A DNA stretch of 41,610 nt, from the IMG/VR virus record IMGVR_UViG_2537561977_000020. The stretch is one strand, 5' to 3'. The DNA is from a virus. Lineage: Duplodnaviria > Heunggongvirae > Uroviricota > Caudoviricetes. The position numbers and the translations under genes were made by a program. Within the stretch, counting starts at the first letter, position 1. Every line of letters starts with the position of its first letter. Below the pieces are notes generated by a model. That model worked only from the letters and a program-made list of their open reading frames with translations, ran no database searches and was not told the origin of the DNA. This document shows, piece after piece, positions 271 through 17,295 of the stretch.

Positions 271-475
271 TTACCGTTAAATCATTTTAAAATCAGTAAG
301 TTGTATCGAGTTTGTATGCTTTACTGTCATTAACTTACTGTATGTTGATCCAGTGTATTTAACCTTGATAAACTCAGTCCAGCAACACAAAACCGCAACA
401 CATTGCATTTTGTCCCGTAGAAAAGACTTGTATGTGTGAGCTTGTTTTCTGCGCCTACGCAGATAAGGATTGAGA

Positions 476-1873
476 ATGCCGCGCACTGTAACACATAATC
501 CGGATAGCCCCAATAATGACGATGTTTTAGCCGCATCTGAAAAATGGGACGCCTGTAAACCCCCCTATACCAGCGCACACATGAAAATCTGTGTTGCTGC
601 CGCCAAAATCATCCTCGCTGCTTCCGGCGTGGCTCGCCGTTCCAAATACGAAAAAGAGAACTATCTCCGTATCGATTTCAGCAAAGCCGGTAAGGTTACA
701 TTTTACGCCGAGTTTCCAAAAAAGATGGGCCTCAAAGGTAAAAAGCTCGGCGAGTGGCCGGAGCTCGCTATCCAGCTGGCGCGCGAAAAAGCACTAGGTA
801 TGGCTGACGGTGGACTGCGGGCAGAGTCCGTACATGCAGCGCTGGAAATGTACCGGGATGACCTCAAAGCCAAAGTAGCCCGGCAGAAGCTGAGCCCGGA
901 CAGTTTCACAACCTACGGGGTGCGTATCGACCGGATTAAAGCAACGTTCGGCGAGCGTGAGGTGTTCAGCGACGTAACATACAATCGGCTGGTGGAAGTG
1001 CTGGACGAGTGGATCGCCACTCGCTCGAACAATAACGCCCTGGAGTTGTTTGCCGAGCTCCGTCGGTTCTGGAAGTTCTGCGCACCTACTCTTTGCAACG
1101 GCCGCAATGTTGCCGCCAGTCTGCCAGATGATTATGTTTCCTCCCGCGTACAGAAACCTACCCCCACACGGCTTTTTACCGATATTGAATCAATCGCCCG
1201 ACTCTGGCTCAATGTTGCTGCCTGCACCTCTGTACACCAGAAGAATGCTGTTCGCTTCATGATCATCACTGGTGTTCGTCCGATTAATGTCCATAACCTG
1301 CGCTGGGACTACGTTTACGAGGAGGCTGGTGAAATTGTTTATCCGGAAGGGGTTATCGGCATGCGAGGGGCTATGAAAACACAAAAGGCTTTCCGCCTGC
1401 CAATAACGCCGGAGATCCGGCGGATTATCGACGAGCAGAAAGCATGGCGTGATTCAGTTCCTGAGTGCAACAGGGATTATGTATTTTTGCAGCCGCGTGA
1501 TCCAATGCAGCCATTTTCAAAACGATCACTGGATAAGCTGGTGAAAACATACAGCCCGGACGGGGCTGTAAAAGGAATAAAACATGATGGGACTGTTAAA
1601 GGGAAAGACGGTGCATTTAATACGATGTGCCGTAAATTCCTTAAGAGCAATGTTATTGCCTTGATGAAGGAAAGAGGCTATTCCCGCTCAGACCGAAGGG
1701 AAATCAGCCTCCTTTGCCTTCACCACTCCAGTAAGTCAGATGACCCGATGGCAGAACATTACGACTTTTCTGATGAGATTTTACAGGAAGAGATTGCGTT
1801 GAAGCGCGAAGCTTTCGAGGCTCACGAGCGGAGCATACTTGCGCAGGTGGCATTGCTACGGCGGCGAGGTTAA
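476..1873 (+). CDS. int: phage tyrosine integrase
   Basis: ATG 476 preceded by AAGGA; C-terminal catalytic region with conserved Arg (ITGVRPINVHNLRWDY) and H..Y tail (LCLHHSSKSDDPMAEHYDF); sits at host/prophage junction. Track ORF begins at TTG 470. Confidence 0.75.
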   Translation: MPRTVTHNPDSPNNDDVLAASEKWDACKPPYTSAHMKICVAAAKIILAASGVARRSKYEKENYLRIDFSKAGKVTFYAEFPKKMGLKGKKLGEWPELAIQLAREKALGMADGGLRAESVHAALEMYRDDLKAKVARQKLSPDSFTTYGVRIDRIKATFGEREVFSDVTYNRLVEVLDEWIATRSNNNALELFAELRRFWKFCAPTLCNGRNVAASLPDDYVSSRVQKPTPTRLFTDIESIARLWLNVAACTSVHQKNAVRFMIITGVRPINVHNLRWDYVYEEAGEIVYPEGVIGMRGAMKTQKAFRLPITPEIRRIIDEQKAWRDSVPECNRDYVFLQPRDPMQPFSKRSLDKLVKTYSPDGAVKGIKHDGTVKGKDGAFNTMCRKFLKSNVIALMKERGYSRSDRREISLLCLHHSSKSDDPMAEHYDFSDEILQEEIALKREAFEAHERSILAQVALLRRRG

Positions 1874-3461: not shown

Positions 3462-3505
3462 AGTATTTTAGCCAGTAGGGCGCGGGGTAATCCCGCGCAA
3501 TAATG

Positions 3506-4255
3506 TCAGATCAGATCGGTGTAGTAGGTGAAGTTGCCAAACTGCGGATGTGTCCAGCGCTTGCGGTTACCTTTCGGCGGTGTCGATTCGTTTAACAGCT
3601 TTTGAGCTGCTTGTTCGATCGCTGGGAGGTTAACGAGCAATCCCCGAACACCGGTGTCTGAACGTACCGGTATACTGGCGAAGCCGATCAATTTCCGGCA
3701 TGTTGAATCAGATAAACCTGTTTTCCATGCTGCTTTGCTGACGGGGACATATTCACCTTCAACATGAGGTAAATTCGCTGGTGCTGCGGGTTGAGAATAG
3801 CCGGTTGCGTCCAGACAAGCTTTCATCGTTGCTTCTGCAACGACTCGAGCAAGTTGGACGATGCCGTCGTTGATCTGAATTTTGGGTGTGGAAGGATGGG
3901 TAACAAGCGGTTGTACTTTACCTGTTTCCAGCTCACGCCAGCGCTTAACTACTTTATACCGGTCGTGGGCGCTATAACCAGTTACAAGCGTTGTGGAAAG
4001 GTCCTGATCGAGTAGTATTTCATCAATGACTTCGCGACCATTATAGATCTTCCTTTTGACTAAAAAGTCTTTATTTTCATGATGGTACATTTCTGTACTA
4101 TGAAAACCCAACTGCTCAAGAAGTGCTTTAATATCGCGCACGACTATTTTATGTTCTTTGCTGGTAAGTTCTGCAATCTCGCGACTGCTCATCATCGGTT
4201 GCTTACCAGTGCCTGCTAGTGTTAAAGTTCTTTCGGACATTGAAGTGTTCTCCAT
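3506..4255 (-). CDS. Rha-family phage regulatory protein (antirepressor-like)
   Basis: N-terminal MMSSREIAELTSKEHKIVVRDIK resembles Phage_pRha domain. Confidence 0.6.
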   Translation of the reverse strand: MENTSMSERTLTLAGTGKQPMMSSREIAELTSKEHKIVVRDIKALLEQLGFHSTEMYHHENKDFLVKRKIYNGREVIDEILLDQDLSTTLVTGYSAHDRYKVVKRWRELETGKVQPLVTHPSTPKIQINDGIVQLARVVAEATMKACLDATGYSQPAAPANLPHVEGEYVPVSKAAWKTGLSDSTCRKLIGFASIPVRSDTGVRGLLVNLPAIEQAAQKLLNESTPPKGNRKRWTHPQFGNFTYYTDLI

Positions 4256-4300
4256 TCAGTAAAAGATGCGCTGGTAGCTGCAACTATCAGCGCGTTTTGT

Positions 4301-4477
4301 TTATTCATCCCACGGCTTGTTTGCAGCTTCCCTTGCGGCCTGCTGCGCAAAATAAATCAATTCAAAAGCTAACTGCTCTCCTTTTTCCAGCGAACTGAGA
4401 AGTCTTGCTGTTTCCAGCATGTCCGCGATATACCCGAAAATATCTGCCTGATGTAACTGCGTGATCTGAATAGCCAT
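4301..4477 (-). CDS. small hypothetical protein (58 aa from internal ATG)
   Basis: Track ORF 4301..4549 starts inside the operator array; internal start MAIQITQLHQ at 4477 is more plausible; no recognised family. Confidence 0.3.
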   Translation of the reverse strand: MAIQITQLHQADIFGYIADMLETARLLSSLEKGEQLAFELIYFAQQAAREAANKPWDE

Positions 4478-4493
4478 AGCGTTAACCTCGATA

Positions 4494-4557
4494 GAACCAC
4501 GGTGGTTCATTTTTAGTAAACCACCGTGGTTCATTGATGTCAACACCACCGTGGTGC
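4494..4557. promoter_or_regulatory. three near-palindromic operator sites between divergent genes
   Basis: GAACCACgGTGGTTC (4494-4508), AAACCACcGTGGTTC (4518-4532), ACACCACcGTGGTGC (4543-4557); centres 24-25 bp apart. Confidence 0.65.
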
Positions 4558-4591
4558 ATAATTTGGTGATTGAGTTTATGAGGTGTTTGCT

Positions 4592-4936
4592 ATGAGTCGT
4601 GAAGATGCACAGATGAAGATCCGTTTACCTGCGGAGCTGAAAGCGCAGTTAGAAAAAGCAGCTCTGGAAAATAAGCGGTCTATGAATGCGGAAGTACTCC
4701 ATCGTCTCAAAGAAAGCTTTAATGTTTTAGTTCACATAACATATAAAGATTCCGAGGGGGAGTTATCAGATAGTAATACCTGGAAGCGTTTTTTGGAATC
4801 ATCTGAACATGGTGATGAATATAAAAAAGGCTTTGTTAAGCTTGTCAAAGAAAAATATAAACTTGATAAGGAAAATGAGAGGTTATATAGCTTAATTATA
4901 AGCTATTTGAACCCCACAAAGAGTGAAGATGATTAG
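4592..4936 (+). CDS. Arc/Mnt-type ribbon-helix-helix repressor
   Basis: N-terminus KIRLPAELKAQLEKAALENKRSMNAEVLHRLKESF resembles Arc/Mnt RHH fold; ATG 4592 with GAGGTG upstream (track lists GTG 4583). Confidence 0.6.
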   Translation: MSREDAQMKIRLPAELKAQLEKAALENKRSMNAEVLHRLKESFNVLVHITYKDSEGELSDSNTWKRFLESSEHGDEYKKGFVKLVKEKYKLDKENERLYSLIISYLNPTKSEDD

Positions 4937-5066
4937 TTTGTGTTTGTAAGTCTGAATAATATTTCTGCATTTACTGAACGCATATTTTTCTTTGCTGTTT
5001 TCTTTAACTCCTCCGCTAATGCGCGGGGGACCCGTAATTTAAACTGTAAGTGCTCATCTGATTTTT

Positions 5067-5336
5067 TCACAATATTCCCTCCAGATTTTTGCTATCCAGC
5101 ACCACTACGGTAAAGCCCAGTTTTCGCAGACGTTCATGTTCGCGCAATTGGTCAGGCCGTGGTGGCTTGCCGGGAGATTTACATTCAACGAAAACGATAC
5201 GACCACCTGGTAGCAGGACAATGCGATCCGGTACCGAGCGGTGACCGGGAGATACAAACTTAAAGGCCACTCCGCCAGCTTTTTTCACTTCAGCGACGAG
5301 GTGCTTTTCGATAAGGCTTTCACGTTCATAGGCCAT
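5067..5336 (-). CDS. VRR-NUC domain nuclease
   Basis: Motif VFVECKSPGKPPRPDQ typical of VRR-NUC; probable start MAYERE at 5336. Confidence 0.55.
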   Translation of the reverse strand: MAYERESLIEKHLVAEVKKAGGVAFKFVSPGHRSVPDRIVLLPGGRIVFVECKSPGKPPRPDQLREHERLRKLGFTVVVLDSKNLEGIL

Positions 5337-5853: not shown

Positions 5854-5878
5854 AAAAAGCCCCTGACTGAGCAGGGGC
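5854..5878 (-). terminator. intrinsic terminator after antirepressor cassette 1
   Basis: Minus-strand hairpin GCCCCUG-CUCAGU-CAGGGGC then U5; near-identical copy at 10090..10114. Confidence 0.6.
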
Positions 5879-5889
5879 GAATTGAAGGA

Positions 5890-6654
5890 TTAACGGGGTA
5901 ACTCTGGTGGAATATATCTGCCGATGCGGTCTTCTATGGTCGGCAGAATGCACATGCTGTCGTTAAAGCGGTCATGCAGTTTGTAGACCAGTTTCGAATC
6001 CATTTTTTCGAGAGCAGGCATTAACTGCGCTCGCCAGATTTCATTAATACGTCGGAAGTTATGACAGACGGCGCGGAGATTGTTGATGAACATTTCCTTT
6101 TCTGCGTCACTGATTCCGGTCTGTGCTTTCTGAATGCATTTCGTGCTGCCATTCCGGTAGAAGCGTTCCTGGGCAGCGACAGCCTCATCCACGGATGGAT
6201 AACACCCTACGTAAACGCTTTTCTCTCCGTTCCATGCGTAGGCTCTGTACGGGTTGTATTTGCTCTGGTGATGGTAAACCATCTTCGGCAGGCACTCCCT
6301 GTGCGGCGCCAGTATCGTGGAGGACTGCTGGTGCAGTTTGCGTTCGCATTCGATGAAGTATCGGCGTATCTGGCGACCTTTTTCGTTACGCTCGACCATC
6401 GCCAGTTCTTTGGCTGTATCGAGGGTGAGGTGGTAGTCCTTACAAAGAACATTTTTACGCTTTCCAGTTTTGGAAAGCGTTACGATATAATCCTGATTTT
6501 CAACGAATTTATAGTCTGCAATTCGTGATGTAATCCATGCTGCAAACACTTTCCCTACCCCAAGGAATGCGTGCAGATCGCGAGCATTGCAGAGCAGGGT
6601 GATTTCGTTGGCGATAGCGCCGTTGAAAACGGGGATGAGTTGAGCTGCCATCAC
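5890..6654 (-). CDS. antirepressor (AntA-like N-domain + KilA-C-like C-domain)
   Basis: N-terminal IPVFNGAIANEITLLCNARDLHAFLGVGKVFAAWITSRI; C-terminal ~145 aa nearly identical to ORF 10126..10899. Confidence 0.6.
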   Translation of the reverse strand: MMAAQLIPVFNGAIANEITLLCNARDLHAFLGVGKVFAAWITSRIADYKFVENQDYIVTLSKTGKRKNVLCKDYHLTLDTAKELAMVERNEKGRQIRRYFIECERKLHQQSSTILAPHRECLPKMVYHHQSKYNPYRAYAWNGEKSVYVGCYPSVDEAVAAQERFYRNGSTKCIQKAQTGISDAEKEMFINNLRAVCHNFRRINEIWRAQLMPALEKMDSKLVYKLHDRFNDSMCILPTIEDRIGRYIPPELPR

Positions 6655-6941
6655 AGTTACCTCTAACGGTGAAATTCACCGCCACCACTGAGTTGCAAAT
6701 CTCATATGGGTGGCGAACTGACGAGGTTTGCAATACCGGCGTTAGAGGAAACCGGCGCGCCGAAGCGCCCCCGCCAGCCCGCCATAATGCGAACGTGGCA
6801 AAGCTTGCGACAATAAAAAAGACGCTGGCGCGTCTGGTGTCGCCCCTAACAATTCCGGGTTGCAAATCCCGATCTCCATTTGGGAGATTCGGTGAGCATA
6901 AACCGGAAGGGGGTGATGAGTCAATATCGGGGTAGCAGGGC

Positions 6942-7022
6942 GGTCGGGTACTTGAACACCGCAGCAAGTCGGCCCGTATCCTTAGCCTTTCGGCTGTTTT
7001 TCGGTATACGCGCTACCCGACC
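6942..7022 (-). promoter_or_regulatory. structured leader element (long-range stem enclosing GNRA-type hairpin)
   Basis: Inverted repeat GGTCGGGTA (6942-6950) / TACCCGACC (7014-7022) enclosing 63 nt with AGCC-GAAA-GGCU hairpin; homologous element with compensatory changes at 10938..11016. Confidence 0.45.
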
Positions 7023-7106: not shown

Positions 7107-7136
7107 AATATACCTATTGGTCATCGCGGATGTCAA
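7107..7136 (-). promoter_or_regulatory. sigma70-like promoter of antirepressor cassette 1
   Basis: Minus strand TTGACA (7136-7131), 18-bp spacer, TATATT (7112-7107); conserved copy at 11121..11150. Confidence 0.55.
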
Positions 7137-10059
7137 TCTTTCCGGTATCTGTAAGATTCGAATCCTCCGGCGTTTAGTGGAATGCTCGTGGCCCAGTCAG
7201 GAACGGTTGCCAGTAACTGGCTGACATGTTCTGCTGAGTAATCGGGTGAGTCAGGGGCCTCACTTATAATTTCATCGTGTACCGTCAGCACAATGCTGTA
7301 ACCGGCATCTTCGATAAGCGGCATGTTTCCGGCCAGAACGTCGCGGGCGGCCGCCTGGGTGACGTTCTCCACCAGCTTTCCGCCGTAGGTTTTGAGTCGT
7401 TGCCATTTACGCGAATAAGAGTTAACACCCATATAGGTGATATTCCCTTTTTCGATAACCGGAGACGGGTAGCATACAGCGCGTCCGGATGGTAGCTGTA
7501 TGCGCAGCCACGCGCCATCGCGGCGGATTTTAAGATAACCGCAATACAATGTTTTTTGCGGTGTGGCGATTGCAGTGCGGACGGTGCGCTCCAGTTCGTA
7601 CCAGAAATCGCAGGTCGCCGGGTGCGCCCTGCGCCAGAGACGTTTAAGTGAGTCGCAGGCGATAAATACCCGTTCAGAAAGGCCGTAGGTTGACTTACGT
7701 TTAACCGATTCGTAGTACCAGCTTTTCGCCTCGCGGATAACATCGCGGGGAATGTTTGGCAGTGCGGCGTTCGCCAGCTCGTCGAGATCGAGACTGTAAA
7801 CCAGTGCAAAAGTGATGAAGGCCGACACACCACCACCGTACCCGCAGTTGTGAACGATTAAATGTCCTGAGTCGGTTTTAATCGTGAATCTGTTTCGAGG
7901 CCCCGCATGTGCAATGTCGTAAACATCGCTCCAGCTCGTCGATACGTTTTTGCAGGTCTGCGATTTTTCTTCTGTTGCGGTTATTGTCTGCTTTGGAGAC
8001 GAACTGGATATTACCCGGTTCGTAGCCTTTGTTATTGTCGATGCGATCCATTTCCAACTTTGGGTCATTAAACCCTTTGATTTCCCTGACGTGTAGCAAA
8101 AAAGCTCTTTTATCTTCCTGCCATAGCTGACAAACGTAGATCCCCCGACCGCCGTAGTTGTGAAACAACCTGTTGGTGGGTTTATGGCAACGGCTGATTG
8201 CGGCAGACAATCGGTTAAGTAGCCTGCGACGGGTTTCGTCATCTGCAATAGCATCCGCATAGCATAAGAATTTTTTACGATACTCGTTATGCTTTTTCTT
8301 TGCGCAAATGTTACATCGGGTACTTTTTCCTTTAAGGAGATTGCTGATTGTTGCGGTGTGAGGCATTGCACCACATTTGCATTTGACAAGTATCCTTCGG
8401 TCTTTTCCGGGTACTTTTTCCAGTTCTTTGATAACGGTAAGTTCTCCGAAGCAAGTTCCAGGCTTTGGTGAAGCGTATTTTTGTTTAAAGCGATAAGGTT
8501 TGCCAGCTTCCATCCAGTAGGGGTTAGCACCTGGTGATCCGGGGTCATTTTTGCTCCGTCCAGTGATATTAAGGCTTTGTACCCCCTGTAAATCAGTCCT
8601 TCGTGTTTTACCCATTCTTCTCCGTCCCATAACAAATCCGCGCCCGAAATACTAACAAGCGGCTTATAGCCTTTATCGGTGAGCACTAAAGTATCCGGAG
8701 CTATGCAAGCCAATTCCAGCACTTTACCTATCTGGCGCTGGTCTTTGGTGACGCGCTCAACTTCAATTCCGTAAGCTTTTGCATACGCCAGTTTATATAA
8801 GTCCGGACCCGCTCCGGCGTCGTACTCTCTGAATGCATTCAGTTTCCATTCTTCTCCCGCCAGCCATGCCAGCATACGGCCTTCAATGTTCGACAAGTCA
8901 CTTACCACCAGTTTTTACCTGTTGGCGCGATAATGCAGCCACGTAACGCTGAACTGGTTAGTTCCATGATATTGTCAAACAGCAGGTCTGCACATCCGGC
9001 TTTCAGTGCTTCGATGCCTTCGTCTATTTGTTCCTGTTTTAGTGAAGGGCGGGGAAGATTCTGGGGCTGGAATAGCCGTCCGGCCCAGCGCCCGGTACGT
9101 GACGCCCCGCAGAACTGTAGCGTACCGCGTAAGCGCCCGTCGTGGCTTACGCCTTTCATCAGTGCCTTGTATTTACTGGTGCTGGTAGTACTGGCTTGCT
9201 GGCGGATAGCCAGCAGTTCTTTCACGGCAGATGGTAAATCGGGGTCGGCTATACGACGTTCCAGGGTACTGCGTTGCATGTCTGGTAGCTCCACACCGTA
9301 GGATTCAACGATGTGCTTAATCAACGCGTCCCGTTGTGTGGCTGCCTGCACTTCGCCATCAGTCATTTCCTGTGTACGCTTTGCCAGGCGCTTTTGCTCC
9401 TGGTCTACCGCTTCGATCGCAGCGCGCGCGAGTTGAATGTCCATGCAGACGCCCCGGTCGTTGATCTGCTGATCACGATGCCAGAGCGCCAGTTCTGTCC
9501 CCTGATAATTCCACTTCGGCAGACGTTTATAGACTTCGCGCATTGCCTCGATATCCAGCCCGGCGTAAGCAACAAAGCGCCGCCATTCTTCCGGGTGGGT
9601 TTTACTGGTGGCCCGACGCAGTTTGCTGTTTTTCGGGCGTGGCTTACAGAACAGCTGGATCAGCGCTTTACCTTCTTTGTCCTTCGCTTTGTCTTGCGGG
9701 ACGCCGAGTATTTCGCAGAGTTCCCCCAGAGACCCCGGGAGGCCGTGCGCCAGCGCCTGCACCATTGTGTCGCGCCAACGTTCGACTGGCGGTGCCAGTC
9801 GCGGCATTGCATAACGCAGGACGGTGCGGTCGAAGTGAGAGTTATGAAAATAAAGCAGGGTCTCAGGGGCTGCGATTGCTTCGTATAAGCCGTGTGGAAT
9901 ACCACCACCGGCAGTGATATCCCACACGTTTACGGGCCCGTCGTTGATAGCCCATGCGAACAGCATCACTTCAACGCCTTCGGCATACGCATGGGTACCG
10001 TTCGTAATAGGGATTTCGCAATAGGTTTCCAGGTCGCCCCATAGAATGTTTTCAGACAA
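7133..10059 (-). CDS. family A DNA polymerase (3'-5' exo + pol), frame-broken and intein-containing
   Basis: Exo motifs [33 protein letters not shown]; pol motifs [26 protein letters not shown] (motif A), [10 protein letters not shown]|CGYGGG (motif B split), LTVHDEI (motif C). Two track ORFs (8902..10059, 7133..8908) joined by -1 shift at T5 run 8912-8916. TTG start 10059 with GGAGGA upstream. Confidence 0.7.
7847..8707 (-). mobile_element. intein inserted in DNA polymerase motif B
   Basis: Begins Cys after KVLELA (CIAPDTLVL...), block B TPDHQVLT, ends ...HLIVHN followed by +1 Cys (CGYGGG); 287 codons. Confidence 0.6.
7878..8630 (-). CDS. HNH homing endonuclease ORF nested in the intein, different frame from Hint blocks
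   Basis: [12 protein letters not shown]...[28 protein letters not shown] plus Cys-rich N-region (CKCG...RCNIC); recognisable domain from about 8513 (MEAGKPYRF); frame is -1 relative to intein splicing blocks. Confidence 0.55.
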   Translation of the reverse strand: MGRRRMGKTRRTDLQGVQSLNITGRSKNDPGSPGANPYWMEAGKPYRFKQKYASPKPGTCFGELTVIKELEKVPGKDRRILVKCKCGAMPHTATISNLLKGKSTRCNICAKKKHNEYRKKFLCYADAIADDETRRRLLNRLSAAISRCHKPTNRLFHNYGGRGIYVCQLWQEDKRAFLLHVREIKGFNDPKLEMDRIDNNKGYEPGNIQFVSKADNNRNRRKIADLQKRIDELERCLRHCTCGASKQIHD

Positions 10060-10125: not shown

Positions 10126-10899
10126 TTAACGAGGTAAAGTGGGTGGAATATATCTGCCGATGCGGTCTTCTATGGTCGGCAGAGCACACATGCTGTCGCT
10201 GAAGCGATCATGCAACTGGTAAACCAGTTTCGAATCCATTTTTTCGAGGGCAGGCATTAACTGCGAGCGCCAGATTTCATTGATGCGCCGGAAGTTATGA
10301 CAGATGGCGCGGAGATTGTTGATGAACATTTCCTTCTCTGCGTCATTGATTGCTGTCTGCACTTTCTGAATACGCTTTGTGCTGCCGTTCCGGTAAAAGT
10401 CCTTCTGCGCAGCGACAGCCTCATCCACGGTTGGATAGCACCCGACGTAAACGTTCTTCTCTCCGTTCCATGCGTAGGCTCTGTACGGGTTGTATTTGCT
10501 ACTGTGGTGGTAAACCATTTTCGGCAGACACTCCCTGTGCGGCGCCAGTACCGTGGAGGACTGCGGAATAGCGGTTTCTTTCTCTATAAGATCAAGCACC
10601 CAACGGCGAAATTCTTTTGCTACTGGCGTTGTTGCGAACATCGCTACCAGGTGAGCACCGCGTAGAGAGAAAATGCGGTTATTCATTTGGACGGAGCCGG
10701 TTTTCCTAACGACCGTCAATTTGACGGTCGTTGTCATTTCAACTGAAAACTCATCCCGATTACGGTCATAAATACGAGCGACTGAGTCCGTTCGTGAGTA
10801 TTCCAGCGCGGTCGCCAGAGTGGCAGCGGTGAACCAAGATTTGCCGTTATGTTCGATCGTTTCGAGAATGTGGGATTTGAATACGAGTTGGGTACTCAT
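10126..10899 (-). CDS. Bro-N/KilA-C type antirepressor-like protein
   Basis: Probable start MSTQLVFKSH at 10899 (track ORF extends to 11064 through the leader); Bro-N-like N-domain; C-terminal domain paralogous to 5890..6654. Confidence 0.55.
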   Translation of the reverse strand: MSTQLVFKSHILETIEHNGKSWFTAATLATALEYSRTDSVARIYDRNRDEFSVEMTTTVKLTVVRKTGSVQMNNRIFSLRGAHLVAMFATTPVAKEFRRWVLDLIEKETAIPQSSTVLAPHRECLPKMVYHHSSKYNPYRAYAWNGEKNVYVGCYPTVDEAVAAQKDFYRNGSTKRIQKVQTAINDAEKEMFINNLRAICHNFRRINEIWRSQLMPALEKMDSKLVYQLHDRFSDSMCALPTIEDRIGRYIPPTLPR

Positions 10900-10937
10900 G
10901 GTTTTATGCCCTAGTAGATATTTTGAATTTACCCTTT

Positions 10938-11016
10938 TTGAGAGGGTGGTCGGGCGCTCAAAACCGCTACTAGTCGGCGGGCGTATTTCCCTTCGGAAGG
11001 GTGTTGTATTAGCCGC
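10938..11016 (-). promoter_or_regulatory. structured leader element, cassette 2
   Basis: GGTCGGGCG (10938-10946) / CGCCCGACC (11008-11016) enclosing 61 nt with CCCUUCGGAAGGG hairpin; arms covary with cassette 1. Confidence 0.45.
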
Positions 11017-11120
11017 ACGCCCGACCATTGAATTCTCAATATCATGGACATAAAAAATCCGCATGACTGACGGGCGCGGTTTCCGCTAGTAGAAAAGGTG
11101 TTTTGAGCACCATGAAGCGG

Positions 11121-11225: not shown

Positions 11226-11773
11226 TTAAATTAGTGCTTCAGCATCAGCACTTTCGCTGATATCGTCGAAATCGTCAGCGCTTGCCACTCCGCCGCCAGC
11301 GAATGCATCGCCGTCTCGCAGGAACTGGACTCCGCCGAGTGAGGCATTAATGCGTTTACCGAAATTATTGTCCTGTGCCCAGATATCGATAACGGCGTTT
11401 ACATAGCACCCTGCATAGGGACGTCCATCAGCCTGAATTAGTGGCGAACGATCGCGATCAAGAACAGCTGGGCGCGCTTTGTTAGCAGCGTTCAGGAAGA
11501 AATTGCCGGGAAAGCCTTCATACTCTGCTTTTTCATCACCATCATGCAGGCACAGATTGAGTTTTTCTCCAGCTGGTTATAAATGGACTCCAACTTCTCC
11601 CCCCATTTTTCCTTCGCTACCTGCTTCATAGCTTTACGGATTTCTTCCAGTTGTGGGTGTTTGGGAGACATTAAAAATACTGCGGAGAAACGCGGATCGC
11701 CTTCGCCGTTTACAGTTTTAGCTTCAAACAGAGCAGGAAAAGCTAATCTCACGTTATTTAATTTAATCTTCAT
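11226..11773 (-). CDS. DUF2815-type phage single-strand DNA-binding protein, frame-broken
   Basis: N-terminus MKIKLNNVRLAFPALFEAK; continues in -1 frame after T5 run 11562-11566 as LCLHDGDEKAEYEGFPGNFF...ending 11226; track shows only 11492..11773. Confidence 0.6.
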
Positions 11774-12285
11774 TTCAAAACTCCTATAAATTCTATGGAT
11801 TCTTTTTCCGCTGCTTTACGCGCAATTACAGCTTCCGCTACGGAATTAAATAGACCTAAATGTTTTTCTTTGCCGTGCAGCTTTATATAAGCTCTCCACT
11901 TATTACGGTGACGGCAAACCCCAACGGCACCGCTTTTATTATCAGAGCGTAAGGATTGGTTAATGTTATTTTCGGTAGAGGTTACAAGTCGTAGATTAGA
12001 AAGGGTGTAATTGCTCCGATTTTTGTCTATGTGATCTACCTCTAATCCCGAGGGGATACTACCGTTATGCATAACCCAGACGATGCGATGTAACAACATT
12101 TTCCGACCGTTTACACTTACGTGATAATACCCGTCCGGCCTTATATGTCCCGCTTGCTTATCTGCATATTTAGCATTCCAGGACAAATAGTCTCGCCGGG
12201 TTTTAAAATGGGTGAGCGGACGATATTTCCATATTAAAACGCCATTGTGATACCGGAAGCATTCATTTAAATATTCTTGATCCAA
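11770..12285 (-). CDS. HNH homing endonuclease (HNH + AP2-like DNA-binding domain)
   Basis: EVDHIDKNRSNYTLSNLRLVTSTEN and SGAVGVCRHRNKWRAYIKLHGKEKHLGLF. Confidence 0.65.
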   Translation of the reverse strand: MDQEYLNECFRYHNGVLIWKYRPLTHFKTRRDYLSWNAKYADKQAGHIRPDGYYHVSVNGRKMLLHRIVWVMHNGSIPSGLEVDHIDKNRSNYTLSNLRLVTSTENNINQSLRSDNKSGAVGVCRHRNKWRAYIKLHGKEKHLGLFNSVAEAVIARKAAEKESIEFIGVLK

Positions 12286-12299
12286 ATAACCTCCTTAAA

Positions 12300-13601
12300 T
12301 CAGATGAGGTCTGCGGTTAGCGTATCGTCGGATACGTCGTCGAAATCATTTACAGGGTTGATATTGAGTGCGGGGTGTGGGTCTGACTCGGGAACGACGG
12401 TGGGTTTACCATCAGCTCGTGTTATCAGTGCCTCGACTTTTGACCAACGGCGCGGACTGGCCTTTTTGATAAGTTTTTCGGCTTTTGTGGGACTAATAAG
12501 TTTAAAGTCGAATACTTCTTCAGTTTTGTACCTGAACTGGTCCTTCAGAAGTGCGCGAGCTGCCTCTTCATCACTCCAGGCCCGGTTACCTTGTTTTCCT
12601 GTTACCAGTTTAAACCCCGGTACCGGATGTCCGGCATTGAGTTCATTGTGAACCCGGTCCCGTACTGCCTTTAGCCAGGATTCAATAAAGTCGGCCTGAC
12701 TATAGATCTCCGCAAGCTGCTCAATGGTTAACAGAGGTACACGTGCGCTGGCATTGGTGATTATTTCGCTGACAGGCTTTGTCAGATCTTCAAAATCGCT
12801 GGCCGCTGTTTGTAAATGCTGCATTTTCTGGGCAGTGCAAATAGCTTTTGCTTTACAGAAGCGGCACTGTTTTTCTCCAGGTATGAAGTTTTCCAGCGGT
12901 AGTGTCTCAATGCCTTCGCATTCAGCAATATTGAGAACAAGGATCGCACTGGTTGCGGCCTCCAGCGCCCGTTCACCGAAAGACTGAAGTTCCTGTACGG
13001 TTAACGACCATTCTGAAACGTGGTTGAGCCTTGGCTGGTGAATAAATAATCTTACAGTTTCAAAGTCATACAGCATGCTGAATTGTTCAAGCGCACCCAG
13101 AGCATATAGTTGTAGTTGCTCATTTTGTTCTGCATCAATGCGGACGCCTTTGCCATATTTCAGGTCGTGGATTTGTAATTCGTTACCAGCGATGATTATG
13201 CCGTCGGCAGTTCCGAAAGATTCTTCCACCCCCGTTATATGTGAGAAATCAACACGTTGTTCAACCAATAGTTCATTATTCTGTGCAAGAGTCCAGACCG
13301 TATCAACATACCGGCCAACGGCTTCGACCATTTCATCATCCACCTGTGGGCCAGATGTATCATCAGGATTTTCGCGAAGGGGGTATGAGCCGAGAAACAT
13401 AGAAACATTGCATCCGGCGTAGTGTTCCGGGTGGCTTTGCCTGTTTCGTAGAACTTTTTCAGCAAGTGCGTGCGCTGCAGTGCCCTCGATTGCAAAAGTT
13501 GTTTCTTTATCCGGTTGTGTGGCCTCCAGCGCCAGACTACCCGCACACCTTAGCCAACGATGTGCAGATGATGGTGATAATCGTGCATGAACATCAGGCA
13601 T
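12300..13601 (-). CDS. DUF2800-type PD-(D/E)XK nuclease
   Basis: N-terminal [16 protein letters not shown] and C-terminal Cys cluster [10 protein letters not shown], recalled for DUF2800 proteins that accompany DUF2815 and PolA in phage replication modules. Confidence 0.6.
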
Positions 13602-14112
13602 TCATGACCTCCTGAATGTGTTTTCGCCGCGCAGCCGCTGCGAGTTGTTTGGTGGGGAAATGACCGAGAGATTTGAATTTGCCGTTTACTCGTCCGTAGG
13701 CCTGCCACGGTTTTTTCTTACCTTCGCTGAACCGAACGCCAACCACTCCAGATTTATTTTTTCTGGTGTGAGAGTTAGCCCTGTTTTGTGAAAGAGAGGC
13801 CCAGCGAAGATTTACCGCCCGGTTGTCATCTCGACGACCGTTAATGTGGTCAACTTCAGGGGCAGATCCGGGAATAAATGCTGCGGCAACGAGACGGTGT
13901 ATTTTGACGGTTACCTTTTTACCCGCTTTCCATAAGTCGGTGATTAGATATCCGTCTGTGTCATAGCGTGGTTTTAGTGACTTACCTTTAATGGGATAGG
14001 TGCAGCCAGAACCTTTGTTTAATACAGTTCTGTCGAGGCTTCTCAGGTTGCCAGCGTCTGAAATCTGGTAAATGCCTTCAAAGCCTGAAATATCCTTCCA
14101 GGCTTCCGGCAT
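13594..14112 (-). CDS. HNH homing endonuclease (NUMOD4 + HNH + AP2-like)
   Basis: [79 protein letters not shown]. Confidence 0.65.
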
Positions 14113-16333: not shown

Positions 16334-16963
16334 TTATCTTTTTCTGCGGAATATGCGATGTTCTACCATTGTCCCTATGATCTTAATTGGTTTTTCCCAG
16401 GAGCGACAAATAGGGTAATCACTATTCAATGGAACAAGTTCAAAGTCTTCCTCACCTTTAGCGCCAATCCCTACCGGGCGGTATTTTTTGAACGTTGCTT
16501 CGTGGCTACCGTTACATGCCGCAACGAATTCACCAGGAGTAGGGTATACGTCAGTGTCAATTATAACGATGTCCCCCTCTTTAAATTCAGGTTCCATTGA
16601 ATCCCCACGTATACGTAGCGCAAATGAACTTTCTGATAGCTCAGCCGTGGTGAGAATGTATTCGAAATCACCTTCTTCACGAAGTAGCTCAGCGCTTGTG
16701 AAAGCCCCGGCTTGTACGTAGCTTAGAACAGGCACCCTTCGAGCTCCGTAGTTGAAATCTGTAACAACATCGCCCCCAAGAAGTAGCCATTTAGGATCGC
16801 ATTCAAGAGCTGACGCTAAAGCAAGAAGATTGCGTGGTTTAAGTGTTTTCCCATTCTCTATAGCTTCAATCGACTGCTGGCTAATGCCCGCTCGTTTCGC
16901 AACTTCGACCTGAGTTAAGTTTAGTTCTGTTCTGCGTTTTTTAGCTCGGTTGGCAAGATTCAT
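16334..16963 (-). CDS. cI: CI-type repressor (HTH + S24 LexA-like peptidase domain)
   Basis: HTH LNLTQVEVAKRAGISQQSIEAIENG; S24 motif RIRGDSMEP; start MNLANRAKK at 16963 with AAGGAG RBS. Confidence 0.8.
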   Translation of the reverse strand: MNLANRAKKRRTELNLTQVEVAKRAGISQQSIEAIENGKTLKPRNLLALASALECDPKWLLLGGDVVTDFNYGARRVPVLSYVQAGAFTSAELLREEGDFEYILTTAELSESSFALRIRGDSMEPEFKEGDIVIIDTDVYPTPGEFVAACNGSHEATFKKYRPVGIGAKGEEDFELVPLNSDYPICRSWEKPIKIIGTMVEHRIFRRKR

Positions 16964-16990
16964 GTTGACTCCTTTTCTGTCATTGATGAT

Positions 16991-17051
16991 TACAGATACT
17001 TCTGTATTTGACAAACAAGGTTGCCTGTGAGGTAATTACAAGTAAACCTGT
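16991..17051. promoter_or_regulatory. OR-like operator/promoter region between cI and cro
   Basis: Palindrome TACAGAtactTCTGTA (16991-17006), TACAAGTAAACCTGTA (17036-17051), TTGACA (17008-17013) with 17-bp spacer to GGTAAT. Confidence 0.5.
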
Positions 17052-17070
17052 AATAATGAGGGCTTACTCA

Positions 17071-17295
17071 ATGACCAGTTCTACCCTTGCTTCACGTATA
17101 AAGGAGCGCCGCAAAGCCTTAGGTATAACCCAAACTTCATTGGCTGAAAGTGTTGGCATGCGCCAGCAGTCTGTTCAATACCTTGAGTCCGGACGCGCCA
17201 CCCGTACCGGTTTCATCCTTGAATTGGCAAAAGTTCTGAAATGCGATCCTGACTGGCTATTAAACGGCGAAAATTCAGAGCAGCAAAAGGTGTAA
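17071..17295 (+). CDS. cro: Cro-like HTH (XRE family) regulator
   Basis: HTH LGITQTSLAESVGMRQQSVQYLESG; divergent from cI; start ATG 17071 chosen downstream of predicted promoter (track ORF from 17008). Confidence 0.6.
   Translation: MTSSTLASRIKERRKALGITQTSLAESVGMRQQSVQYLESGRATRTGFILELAKVLKCDPDWLLNGENSEQQKV

Follow-up and report, generated by a model that had tools for sequence, protein, structure and literature searches.

Three near-identical palindromes separate an Arc-type ribbon-helix-helix (RHH) gene from a divergent Rha-family gene in IMG/VR virus record IMGVR_UViG_2537561977_000020, and they raise the question of whether this temperate prophage (integrase at 470..1873) carries a secondary immunity switch comparable to the immI region of phage P22. 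In what follows, the window is the whole stretch of 41,610 nucleotides that was analysed. A preliminary description of the window had pointed to such a resemblance for positions 3506 to 4936, and the likeness turns out to be closer than was said there, as it extends to the core of the P22 mnt operator (Omnt), a second Arc-like repressor and a plausible sar-like element. The region from 3506 to 5070 is probably a self-contained, mobile cassette for secondary immunity, of the same kind as P22 immI but rearranged, in which an Mnt-like repressor would silence a small gene, orf58, together with the effector gene that follows it. The anatomy of the cassette, the family membership of its proteins, the co-variation between repressors and operators and the mobility of the whole are directly established.

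The three palindromes, O1, O2 and O3 (Table 1), each of them perfect, are indeed found 24 and 25 bp apart in the divergent intergenic region, which is 114 bp long, with their centres at 4501, 4525 and 4550. The pattern ACCACNGTGGT occurs there three times within 60 bp, against 0.04 copies expected per window, and 2000 shuffled windows gave a mean of 0.045 copies and a maximum of one. Elsewhere in the 41.6 kb, no further copy of ACCACNGTGGT was found, even with one mismatch allowed. When 10 intergenic regions of the window's specificity type (type A), taken from four genera, are aligned, the arms ACCAC/GTGGT stay invariant, as do TTGACA, TTTACT and a CATAAT-type block of the promoters described below, whereas the central base and the flanks of the palindromes vary; the same alignment reveals no other conserved motif. 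In these 10 loci, the outer bases of O3 are always unlike those of O1 and O2, a difference that would fit a weaker autoregulatory site. These features support the palindromes as operators of the Arc-family proteins.

The comparison of related loci adds the most weight to this assignment. The gene set formed by a short Arc gene, a long Arc gene, the operators, orf58 and an effector gene is found in prophages of E. coli, Shigella, Salmonella, Serratia and Xenorhabdus, with about 45 related prophage loci carrying the cassette, and it occurs in two specificity types. In type A, the long protein has MSREDAQMKIRLP (strand QMKIR, thus Q-x-K-x-R), the short protein has ..LQFKLR.P and the three sites read ACCAC-N-GTGGT. 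In type B, both proteins carry ..DDPQLRVRIP (Q-x-R-x-R) and the sites read CTCAC-N-GTGAG, with three clean copies in Serratia and Xenorhabdus and two copies plus half-sites in E. coli and Salmonella. Both types have a common geometry, in which O3 and O2 are 25 bp apart with a -35 hexamer between them and O2 and O1 are 23-31 bp apart. The type of the protein is the type of the operators in all of the assessable IMG/VR loci (24/24), and the type of the short protein always matches that of the long protein and of the operators. Natural exchanges display the same rule, since orf58 and the effector gene are identical between loci L009 and L010 while the Arc and operator types are opposite, and loci L044/46 share orf58 and effector with L042/43/45 while the Arc pair and the operators are exchanged together. 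This co-variation is the strongest evidence, short of experiment, in favour of the palindromes being the operators of these very proteins. One odd arrangement was seen in locus L014 of Xenorhabdus bakwenae (2364-2500), in which O1 and O2 stay type A and O3 is replaced by a hybrid palindrome, CCTCAC-A-GTGGAC, with a left half of type B and a right half that matches the P22 mnt operator; it could be a recombination scar or a site of mixed specificity.

The long gene had been described as encoding an RHH repressor, and profile searches place its product firmly within the Arc family. It matches Pfam Arc with E = 1.7e-10 and 41 bits (cut-off 20.4), it aligns from residue 1 with P22 Mnt (31% identity, E = 2e-9), and the best matches of the profile of its family in the PDB are P22 Arc, Mnt (1mnt) and AmrZ. 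The RHH domain occupies residues 1-44 and is followed by a helical C-terminal extension (about 45-114). This extension, which the preliminary description had set apart as absent from Arc, is real; it is not unusual, since P22 Mnt also has one. Among homologues of the long protein, at least four different C-termini are joined to one N-terminus. An AlphaFold2 (AF2) model of the monomer was poor (predicted local distance difference test score, pLDDT, of 52) and was not used.

The first inventory of the locus, which rightly listed the RHH gene, the small open reading frame (ORF) of 58 amino acids and the Rha gene, did not list a second Arc-family gene at the far end of the long one. This short gene is convergent with the long gene, the two overlapping by 4 nt, and its product is 41% identical to P22 Arc and 50% identical to the long protein over the RHH domain. 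Both proteins of the window display a beta-strand with alternating polar residues that face the DNA, ending in R-x-P and followed by two helices that include a G/N-R-S-x-N-x-E motif; aligned to Mnt and Arc, they read QMKIRLP...NKRSMNAEV (long) and QFKLRVP...NMRSVNAEI (short), with the DNA-facing strand residues Q-x-K-x-R in common. An orthology in which the long protein would be Mnt and the short one Arc is not assignable, as the four proteins are about equally distant (all ~31-42% identical to one another), and the correspondence is one of architecture only.

RHH proteins are also common as antitoxins and centromere binders, and two of the top PHROG matches of both Arc proteins (phrog_795 and phrog_2685) are labelled 'partition protein ATPase'. 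A ParG-type partition site, a toxin-antitoxin system or a defence module made of an RHH protein and its repeats is nevertheless highly improbable here, given that the neighbouring genes include no ParA/ParF ATPase, toxin or known defence protein, that the element is integrated as a prophage and encodes an integrase, and that the repeats overlap two divergent promoters next to genes of the Ant type. In PADLOC, the long Arc protein matched a model for a type II restriction enzyme below threshold (14.9 bits, E = 0.0036), and the other three proteins matched none; NCBIfam returned sub-threshold matches only.

Table 1. Features of the cassette region (positions in the window; aa, amino acids)
Feature	Position	Strand	Sequence or description
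Effector gene, Rha family	3506..4240	-	N-terminal Rha domain and conserved ~125-aa C-terminal domain without known family
Candidate antisense promoter	4199..4228	+	TTGCTT (4199-4204), 18 nt, TGt-TAAAGT (-10 at 4223-4228); in first rha codons
Candidate antisense RNA, ~70 nt	about 4235..4305	+	inferred from promoter-like element and terminator
Conserved hairpin and terminator-like element	4268..4305	+	stem GCGCTGGTAG/CTATCAGCGC at 4268-4293, then GTTTTGTTTATT
orf58, first gene of putatively repressed operon	4301..4477	-	acidic, conserved 58-aa protein
Putative operator O1	4495..4507		AACCAC-G-GTGGTT; ~+1 to +13 of leftward promoter; position of Omnt at P22 Pant
Putative leftward promoter for orf58-rha	4515..4543	-	TTGACA (4543-4538), 17 nt, TTTACT (4520-4515); TGn before -10
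Putative operator O2	4519..4531		AACCAC-C-GTGGTT; fills leftward-promoter spacer; position of Oarc at P22 Pant
Putative rightward promoter for long Arc gene	4534..4562	+	TTGATG, 17 nt, CATAAT (promoter scan)
Putative operator O3	4544..4556		CACCAC-C-GTGGTG; fills rightward-promoter spacer; candidate autoregulatory site
Long Arc-family repressor gene, Mnt-like	4592..4936	+	114 aa; Pfam Arc PF03869
Short Arc-family repressor gene	4933..5070	-	45 aa; Pfam Arc, 1.4e-9, 38.1 bits (cut-off 20.4)

The positions of O2 and O1 relative to the putative leftward promoter are those of Oarc and Omnt at P22 Pant. In the annotated P22 genome, Oarc fills the spacer of Pant after a TTGACA -35 hexamer and Omnt covers the start site, and the mnt operator itself, GGTCCACGGTGGACC (GGTCCAC-G-GTGGACC), has the same core, CCAC-N-GTGG, as the operators of the window. 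The leftward promoter was read directly from the sequence and had been missed by the promoter scan, which requires an A at position 2 of the -10 hexamer. The -35 hexamers of the two promoters overlap back-to-back, and the CATAAT block of the rightward one is kept in type-A loci and also in the type-B loci of Serratia and Xenorhabdus. Both promoters are presumed from consensus matches that conservation backs.

The short gene is found in essentially every related cassette, tail-to-tail with the long gene in all loci. Its GTG start overlaps the stop codon of a VRR-NUC gene (GTGA), and the short gene accordingly closes the leftward operon that lies upstream. In type-B cassettes, the long and short proteins agree at 12-13 of their first 14 residues, while 7-8 of the codons concerned differ synonymously, which indicates selection for one DNA specificity and not recent gene conversion. 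The N-terminal residues reportedly determine operator choice in Arc and Mnt, as Knight and Sauer are said to have found in 1989, and with identical N-termini the long and short proteins of type B should therefore read the same DNA. For type A, in which the DNA-facing Q, K and R are shared and the intergenic region contains no other conserved motif, shared operators are the best guess, though a less secure one than in type B.

A different role can be imagined for the short protein, namely that of an antagonist which the early operon would supply after inactivation of CI and which would compete with the long tetramer or form mixed dimers with it while convergent transcription silences the long gene, so that induction would be coupled to a burst of orf58 and Rha. 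The translational coupling of the short gene to an early gene through GTGA, its convergent position with 3' ends overlapping by 4 nt and no terminator in between, the 50% identity of the RHH domains and the tail-to-tail order kept in all loci would all suit such a role. It is improbable all the same, as a short RHH protein sitting on O1 and O2 would still block the promoter, the closest known analogue, P22 Arc, is a repressor, mixed dimers have no support, and the selected, identical N-termini of type B are better explained by a common DNA target than by a poison subunit. A second repressor remains the preferred role of the short protein.

The Rha-family gene and the small ORF divergent from the RHH gene are both present as first reported, Pfam confirming the family of the former. 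The ORF of the effector gene is open back to 4255, and RefSeq relatives start at an ATG equivalent to 4240. Residues 22-110 of its product match Phage_pRha (PF09669) with an E-value of 1e-9 and 39.3 bits (cut-off 29.9), and its match to the NCBIfam model TIGR02681 (19.1) is under the cut-off of 45.95. In Pfam and PHROG searches, the effector matches Phage_pRha and PHROG anti-repressor families and none of the P22 antirepressor families. A homologue, annotated 'Ant', is found in the P1-like phage D6; the alignment covers 92% of the effector (29% identity, E = 3e-13), and the D6 gene is located directly 3' of c4-a1b1, the C4 RNA and icd, that is, in the ant slot of a P1-type immI. Across the related loci, the effector slot is filled by a Rha protein with swappable N-termini and a shared C-terminal domain, by a Bro-N protein or by a KilA-N+ANT(KilAC) protein. 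KilA-N+ANT(KilAC) and Bro-N are usual architectures of antirepressor-type proteins. The context, with the ant slot of D6 and the swap with a KilA-N+ANT protein, supports, without amounting to proof, an antirepressor-type function of the Rha effector. The gene itself is a mosaic: in the window compared with L003, L005, L015, L017 and H14-H22, the C-terminal ~125 residues are kept and the N-terminal Rha domain is exchanged from strain to strain, and many E. coli matches to the gene cover only one third of the query. A word-indexed search for homologues of the C-terminal domain gave three matches only.

The same switch could, in principle, drive a cargo other than an antirepressor. The Rha protein would then regulate phage development by binding DNA, in the manner of phi80/P22 Rha or HK022/HK97 Roi, and the Arc-controlled promoter would provide CI-independent expression of this regulator and, in the window, also of the SNF2 helicase and of an AlpA-like gene, both downstream. 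We know of no defined mechanism for Rha and Roi proteins. The corresponding gene of a 97.9% identical locus is named 'Rha family transcriptional regulator' in RefSeq, Pfam treats the N-terminal Rha domain as a DNA-binding-type module, the D6 record describes its 'Ant' as 'similar to HK97 Roi protein', and the SNF2 gene begins 44 bp after rha with no convincing terminator in between. Helicase expression cannot be the conserved purpose of the cassette, however, as in Salmonella the cassette lies 3' of SNF2, and the two other arguments against a regulator are the presence of KilA-N+ANT(KilAC) or Bro-N proteins in the same slot and the position of the D6 homologue in the ant slot of a c4-icd-ant region. 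A developmental regulator is thus rather unlikely, and an antirepressor-type effector is retained below.

The first gene of the operon, orf58, was held to be unclassified, and it still is after searches of Pfam, PHROG, NCBIfam, PADLOC and the PDB, none of which gave a match. It shows 52-88% identity across four genera with its length preserved, and its family is narrow, with 20 clusters, or about 9 clusters at 50% identity among 1.84 billion representatives. Its AF2 model (pLDDT 73.5), the structure prediction suggested at the outset, has helices at 10-28 and 33-53, and the protein is accordingly predicted to be a helical hairpin; Foldseek gave no match to this fold below E = 0.3 in BFVD or the PDB, and a profile search of the PDB gave none below E = 0.3 either. 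A degenerate RHH protein or decoy was considered and rejected (hhalign probability of 0.2 against the long-Arc profile), as was a homologue of Icd (no alignment with D6 Icd). As orf58 stays unchanged through exchanges of the Arc pair and through exchanges of the effector, a specific contact with one or the other is unlikely to be its mode of action. A conserved 58-residue protein occupies the position of a regulated phage effector. A more far-reaching reading, which can be entertained only tentatively, would combine four elements: orf58, as a new small antirepressor or host-directed factor, would be the conserved payload instead of the interchangeable effector; two paralogous RHH repressors would act on the same three operators, the long one in the lysogen and the short one fed forward from the early operon; a sar-like RNA would add a further layer; and types A and B would be separate secondary immunity groups of prophages that are alike in other respects.

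The sar-like layer is suggested by a conserved hairpin between the orf58 stop codon (4303-4301) and the rha start, which the terminator scan reports on the + strand. Its stem is kept in 10 distinct sequences with compensatory changes at three pairs, and its T-run is conserved on the antisense strand only. Upstream on that strand, a TTGCnn-17/18-TAnnnT element, more narrowly TTGCnn-17/18-TA(A/G)A(G/T)T, is present in seven loci with differing effector N-termini, one of them Bro-N. The RNA delimited by this candidate promoter and the terminator would be complementary to the rha start codon (4240-4238) and to the Shine-Dalgarno sequence GGAG (4253-4250), and the stretch folds at -25.9 kcal/mol (z = -4.7). 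According to the P22 annotation, sar is 70 nt long and located between arc and ant, the same size and position as the candidate. Rfam at 3900-5200 gave neither sar nor another family, with only chance microRNA-type matches on the palindromes. A sar-like antisense RNA between orf58 and rha has about an even chance of existing.

The cassette is one unit that travels as a whole. In the window, it is inserted between the VRR-NUC and SNF2 genes, inside a long leftward early operon that includes DNA polymerase A, exonuclease, HNH, VRR-NUC and SNF2 helicase genes, whereas in Salmonella prophages it lies 3' of SNF2, next to alpA/int. The DNA of vB_EcoM-689R2 and related E. coli phages matches only the flanking helicase and nuclease genes, and the slot of the cassette is filled there by an unrelated gene of 305 codons. 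These differing positions and the absence from related phages are the reasons for concluding that the cassette moves as a unit. Some Salmonella members are found on hundreds of contigs. In the INPHARED collection (50,697 phage records), tblastn with the long Arc protein and orf58 gave no match, and no description of the cassette was found in the literature that could be searched. No LexA box was found near it; there is therefore no sign of direct SOS control. The window also encodes a CI-like S24 repressor (16334..17014, -) and a divergent cro-like helix-turn-helix gene (17008..17295, +). This region, 16334-17295, seems to be the primary immunity region and would be a likely target if cassette effectors are antirepressors.

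From these elements, a course of events can be proposed. In the lysogen, the long Mnt-like protein, with its RHH domain and a C-terminal tail for oligomerisation, would be made from its own rightward promoter and would bind all three operators, probably with a dimer of dimers on each. Occupied at O2 in the spacer and at O1 over the start, the strong leftward promoter, with its perfect TTGACA, would stay shut, so that neither orf58 nor the effector would be made, while occupancy of O3 in the spacer of its own promoter would limit the synthesis of the long protein. Upon infection of a repressor-free cell, the leftward promoter would fire briefly before being shut off by the newly made long protein and by the short one, which has the same DNA-facing residues. 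The short protein would be supplied in a feed-forward manner from the upstream early operon, whereas P22 arc gives feedback instead. The antisense RNA of about 70 nt, ending at the orf58-rha terminator, would probably damp effector translation, as P22 sar does for ant. A CI-type repressor, belonging to this prophage or to co-resident ones, would most likely be the target of an antirepressor-type action of the effector, and possibly of orf58 too. Read-through and convergent transcription may also contribute, as the cassette is inside the early operon and the terminator scan places no terminator between the two Arc genes. Binding, promoter activity, the antisense RNA and antirepressor activity are the inferred parts of this switch.

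Several points weigh against this scheme. Every member of the cassette family is known from sequence alone, and we found no Rha-family protein with a demonstrated antirepressor activity; in RefSeq, the effector gene is a transcriptional regulator. The N-terminal arms of the type-A long and short proteins, those of the window, are identical at only 6 of 13 positions; the type-A short protein may thus have a preference for other sites, and linkage alone could account for its co-variation with the operators. For both promoters, the basis is a match to the consensus only, and the -10 hexamer of the leftward one matches at 4/6 positions. Read-through from the early operon could express orf58 and rha whatever the operators do. 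Regarding the antisense RNA, its promoter is likewise a consensus match and overlaps the rha coding sequence, so that its conservation could reflect the peptide TLTL..KQ; the asymmetry of G-U versus A-C in the stem favours the antisense strand only by 5 to 3, and the Xenorhabdus cassettes have no hairpin.

The surroundings of the cassette include other elements worth recording. The 44-bp gap between rha and SNF2 contains a GC-rich hairpin, GCGCGGGGTAATCCCGCGC, at 3479-3497, without a T-run on the coding strand. About 1 kb from the cassette, an isrK-like RNA (6815-6888, -) and a C4 antisense RNA (6706-6789, -), both gathering-level matches in Rfam, are directly followed by an AntA-family antirepressor gene (5890..6654, -), which together make up a P1-type immI-like module; a terminator-like hairpin (5878..5859, -) lies beyond the AntA-family gene. 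Two Rfam matches to sRNA-Xcc1 are found at 6934-7022 (-) and 10940-11026 (-), with 72.8 and 70.3 bits; the second overlaps a third Ant-like ORF (10126..11064, PHROG anti-repressor) at the 5' end of that ORF. Three Ant-type genes are thus present in the prophage, and the element upstream is of a different kind for each. Two overlapping ORFs, 8902..10059 and 7133..8908 (-), encode the family-A DNA polymerase in split form; the N-terminal part of the latter also matches an endonuclease PHROG, and a frameshift, an insertion or a natural split are all possible. ORFs of the HNH homing-endonuclease type (11770-12285, -, and 13594-14112, -) are scattered among the replication and recombination genes.

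P22 immI is a textbook case of secondary immunity and of operator recognition by RHH proteins, studied almost only in P22-like podoviruses. In the cassette, the same parts, namely an Mnt-like and an Arc-like repressor, an Omnt-type operator, an Ant-type gene and probably an antisense RNA, are wired differently, and a prophage lineage unrelated to those phages carries them as a portable unit. This lineage is common in Salmonella and also occurs in E. coli, Serratia and Xenorhabdus. The cassette lets one ask whether cross-induction among prophages that share a host, such as those of Shiga toxin-producing E. coli strains, is shaped by secondary immunity groups. The matched natural set formed by Q-x-K-x-R with ACCAC and Q-x-R-x-R with CTCAC can also be used to study how the RHH beta-strand reads DNA.

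Compared with P22 immI, whose control logic is taken here from PMC2629481 and PMC11016777, the cassette has a similar maintenance repressor, made of an RHH domain and a C-terminal tail and divergent from the effector operon, and a second, short repressor of the Arc type. In both systems, moreover, the spacer of a TTGACA promoter holds one operator and its start another, a small first gene is followed by a hairpin or antisense terminator and then by the ribosome-binding site of the effector, and the whole acts as a mobile 'moron'. The differences concern the arrangement and the identity of the parts. The arc gene of P22 is the first gene of the ant operon, whereas the Arc-like gene here ends an upstream early operon, tail-to-tail with the mnt-like gene, and the first gene of the cassette encodes instead an unrelated protein of 58 residues, predicted to be helical. 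P22 has one Omnt and one Oarc, whereas the cassette has three operators of one specificity, exists as two exchangeable specificity types and has promoters that stand back-to-back with overlapping -35 hexamers without being fully superimposed. Its effector is a Rha, Bro-N or KilA-N protein and not P22 Ant, and it lies in the early region, whereas P22 immI lies in the late operon. Because it has neither an arc gene placed first with its own operator nor an effector homologous to Ant, the cassette is not a member of the P22 immI system; it is assembled from parts of like kinds and most likely functions in the same manner.

Other known systems share some of these traits. The P1-type immI of D6 has a small first ORF directly 5' of an Ant-type gene, and its 'Ant' is a full-length homologue of the effector, but control is exerted there by the c4 antisense RNA and not by RHH repressors; no C4 RNA was found within 3506-5070, the C4 of the window being 5' of a different Ant gene. 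LexA-controlled antirepressor modules are known from Gifsy phages, 186 (tum) and SPC32H. Like the cassette, they consist of a trans-acting antirepressor gene silenced in the lysogen by a dedicated repressor, whereas the cassette has no LexA box and would be controlled by RHH proteins encoded by the phage. The 'ant morons' of P22-like phages (epsilon34, ST64T, HK620 and others) are variable and independently regulated insertions in which mnt occurs with or without arc and ant, in various combinations (PMC2629481); they are located in the late operon of P22-like podoviruses, whereas the cassette belongs to the early/replication region of prophages of an unrelated lineage, which is of the myovirus type and has pol A, SNF2 and VRR-NUC genes. 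The cassette is thus no new kind of switch but a known kind in rearranged form.

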